The notes below the pieces were generated by a model, which saw nothing but the letters and a program-made list of their open reading frames with translations, ran no database searches and was not told where the DNA came from. This document shows positions 20,701 to 44,231 of a stretch of 44,231 nucleotides of DNA, piece after piece. The stretch lies in contig NW_021829910.1 of NCBI RefSeq assembly GCF_006345805.1, positions 1-44,231 on the forward strand. The letters are read 5' to 3'. Made by a program: the position numbers and the translations under genes. The first letter of the stretch is position 1. Each line of letters starts with the position of its first letter. This DNA comes from Octopus sinensis. Lineage: Eukaryota.

Positions 20701-23700
20701 AAGCTTACAATATCATGTCTTATGAAAGGGAAACTATAGATAAAGATATGAGGAATAAACGTTTTACCATTCGCACGCTTTACATTCACATCTTCTCTCT
20801 AACGAACTTATAGATTCAACTGTATCACACAAACCATCAACAGCACACACAGACACACACATACACGGGAACCCGCGCACACACACATACACACACACAC
20901 ACATACACAAACATACATACGCAAACATTCACAACAGCGCACACATGTACACACACATATGTACACAGACATACTCTCTAACCCTCTCTCTCACGTACAT
21001 TCTCATTCATAACTACATAAGTATAGAACAAAAACAAATGAGTCATCGAAGCGGTCACGAATGACAAAAAATGTCGCTAACGACCATAACTGGTTGATAG
21101 GTTAACCAAACGGTTAATCAAACATTCATTTAGTTAATTCGTTAACAAATTGTTAACAAAGAGACAAATAATAAAGTGAAATAGAAACAGTACGTGTATT
21201 TATCATTGGCATGATGACCCTCCCGAGATGAAAAAATGTTCCAGCATTCGATCCTGAGAAGAGGAAAACTTGGTAACAAAACCAAGCACACTATCTTCAG
21301 TTTGGTTTTTGTGCCCATCCTCATCTGTGGTCATGAATATTGGCTAACGACCGAAAGAGTCTGATCGCAAATAGAAGCGGCCGAAATGGGATTCCTCCGA
21401 AAAAAATGGAGTAGATTTACTCGACACAGTGTGTACCTTGGAGATGAGGGAGTCTCTCCAGATCGAGTCGGTACTTTTTCCATATTGTGCCACTACATTT
21501 CCGATAACGCGGACATGCGATTAGGATGTCACATGACAAAATCACAAGATCGATTCTTTAAAAGGATGAAAAACAGCAGGGAATATAGAGGTAGACCAAA
21601 AAGAGATGGCTACAAAATATCCATAGCCTCATTTGGTCATGCTTGAGAATTCAGTCAGTAAGTGCATTGGCAGTTGCCTCTAATAGGACCCTATGCAGGA
21701 GGTACCTGAGGTACCAGATGTCCTCATGACCCTCCCAGGAATAATGAGCGTTGAAGATGGTAGATGGATGGATATATACGTTATTAAATATAACGGTTTA
21801 TGTCACATTATATTAAGGAAAACTTAGTGTATTGGTAAACAGTCAAAGGCGTTGGAGAGCATAAATATAAAGTTGTAGCTGAGAAAAAGCTGATATGGCA
21901 GACTGGAAGCCATCTAAATATTCTTTCCTAATCTAGGCACAAGGACCGAAATTTTGGGGAATGGGGCCAGTCGATTAGATCGACCCCAGTACGCAACTGG
22001 TAGTCCGAAAGGATGAAAGACAAAGTCGACCTCAGTGGAGTTTGAACTCAGAACGTGAAAAAAACAGACGAAATACTGCTATGCATTGCACCCGGTGTGT
22101 GCTAACGTTTCTGCCAGCTTGCCGCCTTGAAAGCCATCTAAATATTGGAAAAGAGATACCTGTATTCATGATAATTCATGACGGTTACCAAAATTCAGAC
22201 ACCATGACTGCTGTTCAATGCTCTGTGAACACTGTAAAGGCAGCAAGACGTGACATGGACAGTTGCAGCAGAATCTATAGGATAAAACTCGAATACGAGA
22301 GAAAAGTTGCTTCAGAAGATCAAATAACAAGACAAGAAAAAAGGCAAAATGTAGGCAAAACATTCAGTAATGTAAATTGTCTGAAAAAGATGGCACACTT
22401 CATGAAGGTCAAATAATGTAGACAGTACAAGCAAAGGGTTGGTACACATGGGTTAAGTGAGAGACAGAAAATGGCTGACGATGGGAGAGAAGAGCAAATG
22501 TGGTTTTATTCGAAGAAGAGTGAACACGAATGGAAAGGGAGAGAAGAAGGGTGCGGTATGTGTGCGTATAGGGGAGGTAAACTGTTGCAGTTAGTAGCAG
22601 CCAAGCAGTAGTGGGAGGAAAAGGGAGGAGGAGGAGAGAGAAGTGAGGGATTTAGAGATACAAAGCAAAACAGTGGGTGCAAGAGTGAATGTGTGAGGGC
22701 AGCACTTGTGAGTATGGGTATGTGTGTGTGAGTGTGTGTATGTGTTTGAAGAGTGAGTGTGCGTGAATATGTATGAGTCTATGTATGAGTGTGTATGCAT
22801 TTGTATGTGTGTGTCAAAGATAGAATATCCAATGGGACAAAGCCGTGTGTATGTGTGTGCGTGTGTGTATGTGTGTGTGTGTGTGTGTGTGCGCGTGTGT
22901 GTGTGTGTGTAATGAAGTGTGAAGAGAGTAACTGTGCTACCGAAGTGAGATGTGTAGGTAGAAACTGTGGTCTATCGTGTGAAGTGTGTATAAAGTGTAA
23001 ATGTGGGCGGAGGGACAAATAATGTGTGGATGCGGGTTGGTAAGAGTGATGCAGCGGAGGAGAGAGAGAGGAAGAAAACGAAGTAGAGAGGAAAAGTATA
23101 CTTTTAGCGCTTGGCCAGGAAGACAGTCAATGCTCATGATCATTCAGAAGGCTGCTGTGATTGGTTGGGGGAGAGTAGGAAGATACCCTGAAACCAATGA
23201 CCTGCCTTGATTGTTTACAACAGAGAAGAATCCGGCATAAACAGCGAAGGTTCCAAATGACAGACTTAAAATGGGGTCCGATTAAGCACATCACTCGAGA
23301 AAATATACGAGTAAGTACGTATATGTATGTACATACGCACGCACATTCATTCACACATTTTCACATACGGACATACATACATACATACATACATACATAC
23401 ATACGTACATACAGATACATACATACCGATATACATACATACGTACATACATACCCATGGTTTCTAGGAGTCCTTCATCTGGCTAAATTTCCAGTTAGCC
23501 ATAAGCAAAGCCATAGCTGACCTGATTCCATTGTGGGCCACCATCATGAAATTAAACACAATGAGTGACTATTATCACTGACAGAATACAATATCGCAAA
23601 GGCATATTCCAAGGGGACAACCTCGTTTTGATGTTGTTTATACTTTCTGTAAACCCCATGTAATTCATGTTAAGGATATCTCATTGGTTCACAAGGAAAC

Positions 23701-41595: not shown

Positions 41596-44231
41596 GTAAG
41601 TGTTATTTATTGTCTAATATAACACCACAAGGTTTATTACAAATTGATAGTTAATAAGAACATTGTATAATAGTTAATAAAAGGGAAATGTTTTGATGTG
41701 TATATATGTGTGTGCAAGTGTAAATGTATGTATATATATATATATATATATATATATATATATATATATATGTATATATACATATACACACATATATATG
41801 TGTATGTGTGTGCGCGTGTGTATGCACATGCGGTCGTGCACACACATACGTATTTGCACGTATATATATATATATATATATATATATAGCGATTAAGGAC
41901 AACTACTTAAGGAAAACTTAACAAGAAATTGTCAGGTAGATAGCGTAAAAACCTCATAAGAGAAAAAATTTCGAAAATAATATTTGTTACTGAACATATT
42001 AATTATATATAATTTATATATATATATAAATTATATATATATATATATATATATATATAATATATATATATATATATATATATAATATATATATATATAT
42101 ATATATTATATATATATATATTATATATATATATATATATATACATATATATATATATATATATCAAAAAGAATTCATAAGAGAAGGGCTAAATATCCTC
42201 TTCAAGAATAGCTTCTTTGTCTTCTAAGACAACTTCTATCATTCTTTGGCATGAAAGTATAGAAAGACTTAAAGGAGTTCAAGCTCTTATAAATGGACTT
42301 GATATAAACATTCAATTTACGATGGTATATAGCCATCACCAACTTCAATTCCTCGACATCCTCTTTACGAATTTCATCATCAAAATACAAACAGATACAT
42401 ACGATAAGCCTACGAACTCGAAGCCATATCTACTGTTTAATTCATGCCAAACCAGACACACTAGAATGAATATCCCCTTCAACCTAGCAAAAGGGATTTG
42501 TACTATAGTCTCTAATACAAACACCAAGGACACACGGCTACATGAACTAAAGGATACACTCCTTACCAGGAACTACCCACAATCACTAATCGATATAGGC
42601 TTTCAATGTGCCCTACAACTCAATATCCACGAACTCAGACATCCCAAGTTAAAGAAGGATTTACAGCCAATATCCTATCATCCATCTCCACATACAACCC
42701 CCTTAACAATGAAGCTCTCGACACAATCCTGCAGAACATTCACCTACGAAAAAGGGATTACAGAATGAAGTTTATCCTCCAAACGTACACCATCATAAAG
42801 GGCAAAAGACAACCAAAATCTATTAAATGTCTCTTAACATAAGCTCAAGTATATTCGAAACCACACTGAAGCCGGCAGGAAAAATTTGCAGAAGACCTGA
42901 CTGTGGTATATGCATTAACCTAACTGAGGGATAGGAATTCTCTTTCAAACATGTAGGGTAGACCAAAAACAGATGGCTAGAAAATATCCATAGCCTCATT
43001 TGGTCATGGTTGAGAATTCAATCAGTAAGTGTATTGGCAGTTGCCTCTGATAGGACCCTATGCAGGAGGTACCTGAGGTACCAGATGTCCTCATGACCCT
43101 CTCAGGAATAATGAGCGTTGAAGATGGTAGATGGATGGATATATACGTTATTAAATATAACGATTTTATGTCCCATTATATTAAGGGAAATTTAATGTTT
43201 TGGTAAACAGTCAAAGGCGTTGGAGAGCATAAATATAAAGTTGTAGCACAGAAAAAGCTGATATGGCAGACTGGAAGCCATCTAAATATTCTTTCCTAAT
43301 CTAGGCACAAGGACCGAAATTTTGGGGAATGGGGCCAGTCGATTAAATCGACCCCAGTACGCTACTGGTATTCCAAAAGGATGAAAGTCAAAGTCGACCT
43401 TGGCGGAATTTGAACTCAGAACGTAAAGACAGACGAAATACTGCTAAGCATTGCACCCGGCTAAAGTTTCTGCCAGCTTGCCGCCTTGGAAGCCATCCAA
43501 ATATTGGAAAAGAGATACCTGGATTCATGATAATTCATGACGTTTACCAAAATGGTAACACTGATGTTGCTGAAATTCCAATGTAGGAGCCGTAGATGTA
43601 GGATAGAAATTCTCTCTTTCTCTATTGCCAAGAAATCTTGAATAACAGTAAATAATGACATACATACATAATACATGCATACATGCATACATACATACAT
43701 ACATACATACATACATACATACATATTACATACATACATAAATATGTGTATATTGGAAAAAGCACAATATTAGTGATCATATTTTTTATTGTTTATCCAA
43801 ATATTGTTTTGCTCACTTCACATTTTATGGCCTTCTTCACATTCTATATGACATTGCAACATAACTTAAATGAGATTCTCAGGTTTCATTAGGGAGTTTC
43901 CACTGCATCAATGGTTGCAACTTACAAATTTCATCCTTTTATTTGACTTGTTCAACGATTTTCACGTGTTTGTTACATCAGAATACTAAAAGAACAACAA
44001 GTGGCTTTCATGCTTCTCTCAATTGAATTTGTGACTTTATTGAAACATTTCCAAATGAACATAAAAATAGGTTTATAGTCTTTGTTAATAATTTGCTTTA
44101 TATGTCTAACATGTATTGATTTCAATACTAACACGTATACATTTTTTTTTACAACATAAAGAAAATATTTCTTGTTATTGCTATGCATTGCATTATTTGG
44201 TTCATAAATACAGATATTTACTTGTATTCTG

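Follow-up and report, generated by a model that had tools for sequence, protein, structure and literature searches.

Tandem amplification of a candidate three-finger (LU) module in a putative adhesion GPCR-family gene of Octopus sinensis

The gene considered here lies on contig NW_021829910.1 of Octopus sinensis, the whole of which (44,231 bp, referred to below as the window) was analysed, and contains tandem copies of a two-exon module that probably encodes a Ly6/uPAR (LU) domain. The 3′ end of the gene is beyond the contig. Several described systems resemble it in part, and statements about the papers cited refer to the parts of each that were covered. Nearest in layout are the group 3 adhesion GPCRs (G protein-coupled receptors) of octopus, which combine leucine-rich repeats (LRRs), a GPS motif and an adhesion-type seven-transmembrane (7TM) domain, lie in tandem clusters, include one Death-domain member (compare P0039; P numbers denote proteins of our comparison set) and have been reported both from O. 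bimaculoides (axial nerve cord, suckers and skin) and from C. minor (gills and skin) (Ritschard 2019, PMC6408891). One of them, Ocbimv22025843m (LRR 3-54, SSF57302 136-215, GPS 654-697, 7tm_2 712-948; PMC6408891), has nearly the layout of P0030. The LU domain is unnamed in that work (0 matches for Ly6 or uPAR in the 3 files searched), and the parts covered contain nothing on module copy number or exon exchange (PMC6408891). Group 3 is defined by its 7TM domain, whereas the window holds none. Homologues of our gene nevertheless share the group 3 layout of LRR, SSF57302-type domain, GPS and 7tm_2, SSF57302 being what we take to be the snake-toxin-like (three-finger) superfamily, and, judged on sequence, the layout of the locus matches that of group 3.

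Certain molluscan, arthropod and starfish GPCRs are likewise 7TM receptors whose ectodomain carries an N-terminal LU domain, and the text covered describes no tandem LU arrays inside GPCRs (PMC13719153; Lyukmanova et al. 2024, PMC11595613); a figure legend of Paramonov et al. (2026) places LRR and GPS among the domains (PMC13719153). ADGRG6/Gpr126 is similar in having a SEA-like and HormR-like stalk before its GAIN domain, and is the best Foldseek match of P0004. It differs in its head, which is CUB-PTX and not LRR-LU, and the likeness is known from a structure match, not from orthology. In Gpr126, a spliced ectodomain linker changes conformation and signalling (Leon et al. 2020, PMC6954182).

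Tandem LU domains, each encoded by two exons between phase-1 introns, are found in uPAR, CD177 and C4.4A, but these are glycosylphosphatidylinositol (GPI)-anchored, LU-only proteins in which the first domain lacks the 7-8 disulfide and the inner intron lies at the tip of loop 2 (PMC6600238). In contrast, the octopus modules keep all 12 cysteines, are near-identical and lie inside a multidomain receptor behind an LRR head; their inner intron, between fingers 1 and 2, departs from the loop-2 position because exon A encodes finger 1, together with a linker, and exon B encodes fingers 2 and 3. LYPD1/Lynx2 and LYPD6/6B are the best structural matches, and LYPD6 also has an extra cysteine pair in loop 3, but these are single GPI-anchored domains of around 20% identity, and the likeness is one of structure. 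The receptor family, LU-bearing GPCRs, phase-1 LU exon pairs and intragenic duplication are each already known singly. In the literature covered, which excluded subscription journals, we found no paper reporting that LU copy number changes, or that finger-1 exons are exchanged, in octopus GPCRs.

Tandem units and their two-exon module

The account that we favour, as a moderately probable one, is that the window contains the N-terminal half of a member of an octopus-expanded adhesion GPCR family, in which an LU module has been tandemly amplified, a different finger-1 exon has been imported from a paralogue and the modules are chained into a stalk. Self-alignment of the window revealed four head-to-tail units, three complete and one partial (Table 1), with unit-to-unit identity of 92-99% over kilobases, far above chance. 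A preliminary description of this DNA had counted at least four units, of roughly 9.0, 7.4 and 4.9 kb plus a partial one, and the count and sizes agree. Differences in length are accounted for by a 1.3-kb internal duplication in unit 1 (a tandem duplication of a reverse transcriptase remnant, 23363-24775 vs 24684-26096), a 2.3-kb deletion in units 3 and 4, and microsatellite length. The contig ends (44229-44231) exactly 3 nt upstream of a fourth exon A, and the array may be longer.

Each complete unit carries an exon A of 92 nt and an exon B of 184 nt, together 276 nt or 92 codons, with phases 1-0-1; all six acceptors are AG and all six donors GT. The intron between A and B is phase 0, and both the LRRCT exon and every exon B finish in phase 1. 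When the first exon, the six LRR exons, the LRRCT exon and the three modules are spliced by coordinates, no stop interrupts the frame over its 536 codons. Between modules 2 and 3, only synonymous changes are seen, at 3 of 276 nt (chance probability 0.009, calculated post hoc), while modules 1 and 2 are separated by 14 changes, of which exon A holds 12. A tblastn search with six homologues found no LRR or LRRCT exon inside the units, and no downstream (SEA-like/GAIN/7TM) exon either there or elsewhere in the window. The symmetric phase 1-1 module with intact splice sites, the three synonymous substitutions and the claim of domain rather than gene duplication, all put forward in the preliminary description, are thus upheld, as is recent amplification where the later units are concerned.

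Whether the copy number is real deserves scrutiny. Units 2 and 3, and perhaps 4, might be alleles or near-identical paralogous loci that were concatenated on an unplaced contig, with copy number inflated by assembly. Units 2 and 3 are separated by 39 substitutions and one indel in 4,194 bp (0.93%), which is below the 1.22% heterozygosity of O. vulgaris (bioRxiv 2023.05.16.540928), a yardstick from that species, as no O. sinensis value was found; those two units alone could therefore be alleles. The contig, a short one, stops within the array, and a similar two-module model of the same species, P0004 (LOC115226131), lies on a 17-Mb sequence and shares array-specific residues. Set against this, there are three distinct junction regions, 1.6-3.7% apart by substitutions, more than a pair of single-junction haplotypes can account for, and the pre-A introns are of four distinct kinds, 1.2-3.1% apart. 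Together these imply that one chromosome has at least two junctions, if the contig represents one locus of one diploid animal. Moreover, such a junction is impossible in a single-copy gene, units 3 and 4 share both the 2.3-kb deletion and a head that is 5-6% diverged from units 1 and 2, and the differences between units are substitutions (1 indel in 40), unlike long-read error. We regard an assembly origin as quite unlikely.

Table 1. Features of the locus, in window coordinates
Feature	Position	Strand	Remarks
Signal peptide + LRRNT exon	2514..2724	+	ATG 2534; ends phase 2; 60/63 aa identical to O. vulgaris P0014
Six LRR exons, 72 nt, phase 2-2	6206..11773	+	starts 6206, 6939, 7775, 9596, 10356, 11702
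LRRCT exon	20476..20633	+	phase 2 to 1; in-frame alternative acceptor 20425 adds 17 aa
Unit 1	21590..30621	+	9,032 bp; self-alignment
Exon A1	27230..27321	+	linker + finger 1; phase 1-0; orthologue-type sequence
Exon B1	29293..29476	+	fingers 2 and 3 + CC-x4-CN end; phase 0-1
Unit junction	30582..30662		post-exon-B intron joined to pre-exon-A intron; breakpoint the same at 30622, 38062 and 42957
Unit 2	30622..38061	+	7,440 bp; begins at junction 1
Exon A2	34455..34546	+	paralogue-type finger 1; 8 aa differences from A1
Exon B2	36517..36700	+	second module
Unit 3	38062..42956	+	4,895 bp; ~2.3-kb deletion at 38658 compared with unit 2
Exon A3	39350..39441	+	protein sequence same as A2
Exon B3	41412..41595	+	protein sequence same as B2
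Unit 4, partial	42957..44231	+	1,275 bp; has unit-3 deletion; stops 3 nt before exon A

A candidate three-finger domain and its host gene

The module comprises 79 residues, LU domains having 60-90 residues and 10 cysteines, with cysteines at 3, 6, 11, 19, 26, 43, 49, 72, 73 and 78, the spacing of an LU domain, and an extra pair at 60 and 69 in loop 3; the disulfide pairing is presumed. All 12 cysteines are present in each of the three window modules and in 39 of 46 full family modules. In all three, the CN at the end of the module is followed by K-N and forms no sequon, leaving the non-glycosylated Asn of an LU domain. An AlphaFold2 model of the close homologue P0002, built from a 36-sequence alignment, gave predicted local distance difference test (pLDDT) scores mostly of 78-88 over the module. 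All of its best 24 structural matches were three-finger proteins, among them Lynx2 (LYPD1; Z 7.0, the top score, with root mean square deviation (rmsd) 3.2 over 81 aligned residues) and Lypd6b (Z 6.3, rmsd 3.8, 85 aligned), and the best Foldseek E value was 6e-3. Each Z score is middling, and the evidence for the predicted fold is the agreement of the match list. The module is, by this model, a 12-cysteine three-finger (LU-fold) domain, and the fold first proposed from sequence gains support.

Exon B alone scored 13.2 bits in the Pfam LU clan against a cut-off of 31.5, with a weak Lypd6 family match (E 0.1); whole proteins, searched to E 0.1, gave no LU-domain Pfam match; P0004, compared by sequence with solved structures, gave 0 matches at E up to 1; and a language-model atlas provided leads only (best 0.79, LU cluster 0.75). 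Placed on the P0002 model, the inner intron follows strand B (102-110) and precedes strand C (117-125) and Cys5. The four most variable columns of the family are in finger 1, with entropy of up to 2.1 bits among 23 distinct modules, and A1 has one extra N-glycosylation sequon.

Searching with exon B recovered 31 proteins among 32 candidates, 30 of them Octopus-named and many labelled ‘adhesion GPCR G6-like’. P0001, the database model of the locus itself, chains all three modules and is named ‘protein slit-like, partial [Octopus sinensis]’. Slit proteins have four LRR domains followed by EGF, laminin-G and cystine-knot domains. We rejected the name, since P0001 has one LRR domain followed directly by LU modules and no EGF or LamG match; the model is partial, but its domain order is already unlike that of Slit. 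In the window, Pfam and sequence give LRRNT (E 7e-5, under the curated cut-off, in the first exon), LRR_8 and the modules, behind an N terminus that is hydrophobic as read by eye.

What would follow downstream can be seen from the relatives. Pfam finds GPS and 7tm_2 in P0012, P0029 and P0030, and GPS in P0014; full family members read LRR, module, HormR, GAIN, GPS and 7tm_2, to which the relative P0039 adds a Death domain. O. vulgaris P0014 is the best non-self match to the first exon (60/63), to five of the six LRR exons (21-23 of 23) and to exon A1 (29/30), and is likely, from these identities, to be the orthologue; it has one module and continues into GAIN/GPS and a first transmembrane (TM)-like segment. 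The model of P0004 shows a SEA-like and HormR-like region after the module, the best match of which is the zebrafish Gpr126 ectodomain (its residues 400-563; Foldseek E 1e-4). The SEA label is of moderate strength, SEA domains scoring Z 7.1-7.9 in a tie with unrelated ferredoxin-like folds of up to Z 8.9. By homology, the window probably holds the 5′ half of a gene that belongs to the octopus-expanded adhesion-GPCR family (LRR-LU-SEA-like-HormR-GAIN-7TM) and runs off the end of the contig. The modules would accordingly be an internal stalk and not a GPI-anchored LU-only protein, and the likeness to uPAR/CD177 drawn at the outset is not supported.

Two or more modules occur in 4 of the 31 homologues (P0001-P0004), with B-to-A junctions modelled in two species; as these are gene models, isoforms included, the figure does not stand for so many independent genes. 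The 17 more distant relatives never show more than one module. The module pair of P0003 arose separately, because it has a 2-residue deletion that is absent from the window modules, and its module 1 has lost a core cysteine. A search for taxonomic range from a distant relative matched 2 of 523 candidates. The supplement of Ritschard 2019 (PMC6408891) lists one Euprymna LRR member; the family therefore probably extends beyond octopods. P0047, which contains unrelated DUF repeats, was dropped, and six proteins lacking a full module were left out of the tree.

Ten of the 31 models (P0004, P0009, P0015, P0016, P0018, P0020, P0021, P0022, P0027 and P0031) have no GPS or 7TM. They share the terminal motif of the 7TM member P0029, several of them after a second SEA-like copy, and are possibly a set of secreted ectodomain-only paralogues.

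The 5′ exons offer further observations. P0001 includes an extra in-frame exon (2041-2175) upstream of the ATG at 2534, probably 5′ untranslated region read as coding. An upstream in-frame LRRCT acceptor (20425-20475) is used by P0014 and several O. vulgaris models, and not by P0001. The second LRR exon (6939-7010) has no counterpart in P0014 and was skipped, lost or newly gained, while the donor of the fifth (10428-10433) is GTTAGT, not GTAAGT, and with this weaker site the exon might be skipped more readily. Older duplicated blocks (6120-10520), with flanking intron 79-86% identical, contain four of the six LRR exons, from which it follows that the LRR head also grew by single-exon duplication; LRR pattern counts range from 2 to 11 among family models that include the first exon.

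Probable mosaic origin of the array

The preliminary description spoke of a recent tandem amplification of a module, but the copies are not simple descendants of a single one. Exon A1 is identical to the O. vulgaris orthologue P0014 at 29 of 30 residues, and A2/A3 to the paralogues P0021/P0022 at 28 of 30, whereas A2 matches A1 at only 22 of 30. An exon-A tree rejects an A1+A2 clade (approximately unbiased test, p-AU 0.002), in a test of 30 columns chosen after the identities had been seen; rejection by exon A, combined with non-rejection by the whole-module tree (see below), is as a mosaic predicts. The differences between units 1 and 2 are concentrated in the same place, with 12/92 in exon A, 2/184 in exon B and 12/486 upstream (Fisher p 5e-5 to 7e-5). 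In addition, 34 of 50 variable sites in the A-B intron fall in one 361-bp patch (27600-27960), which 0 of 5,000 permutations reached. Divergence between these two units is 13% in exon A and around 1% in exon B and the remaining A-B intron.

Site patterns also switch along the unit: units 1 and 2 stand against 3 and 4 in the head, 1 and 3 against 2 and 4 in part of the pre-A intron, and 1 against 2 and 3 from exon A onward. The head split (21788-22163 compared with the heads of units 3 and 4) amounts to 5-6%, above the rest of the unit, and suggests a second imported patch over a common short repeat. A test for positive selection on exon A was negative (10 nonsynonymous : 1 synonymous, p=0.33), and import from a paralogue would explain the exon-A excess better than selection. 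Both A types are present in O. vulgaris and are therefore probably older than the species split, put at roughly 2.5 million years (bioRxiv 2023.05.16.540928), while the amplification of units 2-4 is recent. A separate sign of segment shuffling among paralogues is O. sinensis P0019, in which an A2-like module (26/30) sits on a P0014-like downstream part (84/90).

One breakpoint is common to all junctions, which argues for a single break followed by amplification. Both sides of the junction look like cut retroelement remnants, presumably Penelope-like and RTE-like from their motifs; Pfam gave no match for either. Most likely, the array began with a single non-homologous break that fused the post-exon-B intron with the one preceding exon A. 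Unequal crossing-over would then have multiplied the unit, and a different finger-1 exon would have been imported from a neighbouring paralogue by conversion or crossover.

Alternatively, the expansion could be neutral, in a decaying duplicate whose extra modules are unused or harmless. The introns are repeat-rich, and many family models are partial or broken, such as P0003 with its module 1 minus a core cysteine; against that, the window has 536 open codons, 12/12 cysteines in three modules, canonical splice sites and 3/3 synonymous changes. Intactness is a weak argument here, because recent copies look intact without selection too. We nonetheless think a neutral expansion unlikely.

Other repeats were seen in the window. 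An inverted composite repeat pair with ATT microsatellites, 75-84% identical, occupies 1-938 and 15258-16496. Degenerate non-LTR (long terminal repeat) retrotransposon remnants lie at 14097-19339 (minus strand), 23674-25405 and 32662-32913, with RVT_1 matches at 17810-18202 and 23674-24081; one remnant is interrupted by a 43-bp/23-bp tandem array (18154-18570).

Use of the modules and significance

The splice sites are identical in all copies, so sequential splicing is the simplest outcome. If the exons are spliced in order, the LRR head of the product would be separated from its membrane-proximal part by at least three LU domains, joined by linkers of around 15 residues and with two finger-1 surfaces on show. 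A longer ectodomain of this kind would change reach, avidity or head-to-stalk conformation rather than make many isoforms, and by analogy with the spliced linker of Gpr126 stalk length may tune reach or activity.

A different possibility is that the modules are alternatively used cassettes, with one module or an A/B mix per transcript varying ligand specificity. The phases permit any skip, the most variable family columns (see above) sit in exon A, the LRR regions of the database isoform pairs P0006/P0007 and P0021/P0022 differ by 24 or 72 aa, and a spliced linker tunes signalling in Gpr126 (PMC6954182). On the other hand, the splice sites of the copies are identical over 30 nt (acceptor) and 6 nt (donor), with nothing visible that favours exclusion, and P0001 chains all three modules. 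Furthermore, only three distinct single-module proteins are possible, since A2 equals A3, B2 equals B3 and B1 differs from B2 by 2 residues, and a large isoform code is therefore excluded for the visible array. The mixing of A and B exons from different units, suggested earlier, is accordingly allowed by phase while yielding little diversity. Cassette use seems to us improbable.

Several observations weigh against the account of a chained stalk in an adhesion-GPCR-family gene. The fold was predicted on P0002, which is 95% identical in exon B, with a best Z of only 7.0, and module-to-module packing is not resolved in the P0002 or P0004 model, where the first module is partial. No short exon-B fragments that might span a B-to-A junction were found. 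The whole-module tree does not reject a sister pairing of modules 1 and 2 (p-AU 0.25), no more than 30 columns come from exon A, and the selection test on that exon was negative. The LRRCT is nearer to P0009 (50/52) than to P0014 (47/52), and the single-module O. vulgaris model could hide unannotated units.

Finally, the gene may encode a secreted protein, since 10/31 homologous models stop, without GPS/7TM, in a terminal motif that they have in common. The product would then be a 7TM-less ectodomain, a decoy or mucus protein, with a 3′ end like that of P0004 (LU-LU-SEA-HormR-SEA-stop); this agrees with the favoured account about origin and departs from it over the product. B1 and B2 have their closest non-self match in P0004 (59/61), which alone among the other proteins has the ISVNG motif (1/48), and ‘Adhesion GPCR G6’ proteins are reported in O. 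vulgaris skin mucus (PMC11431876). Conversely, the orthologue P0014 goes on into GAIN/GPS and a first TM-like segment, the full module of P0004 has a third exon-A type, a mucus protein could be a shed ectodomain, and truncated models may be annotation artefacts. A secreted product has an appreciable chance of being correct, and we consider it less probable than a membrane receptor with a chained stalk.

The LU domain has been described as only a ‘proto-module’ (Leth et al. 2019, PMC6600238), a view with which its repeated duplication here, inside a multidomain receptor, may be contrasted. Adhesion GPCRs are among the few receptor families with an octopus-specific expansion, and the locus illustrates ectodomain change on a short time scale, by tandem LU copying and a one-finger exon swap between paralogues, in a module overlooked by standard annotation. 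It also supplies diagnostic sites for direct tests of copy-number variation and splicing. On a more speculative note, the group 3 receptors could constitute a germline mix-and-match kit, in which LRR exon number, LU copy number and the hypervariable finger-1 exon pass between paralogues of a cluster and differ from one individual to another, so that skin, suckers and gills contain both 7TM receptors and secreted decoys. We think this doubtful, but, if true, it would represent a diversified self/non-self or microbe-sensing adhesion-GPCR system in cephalopods.

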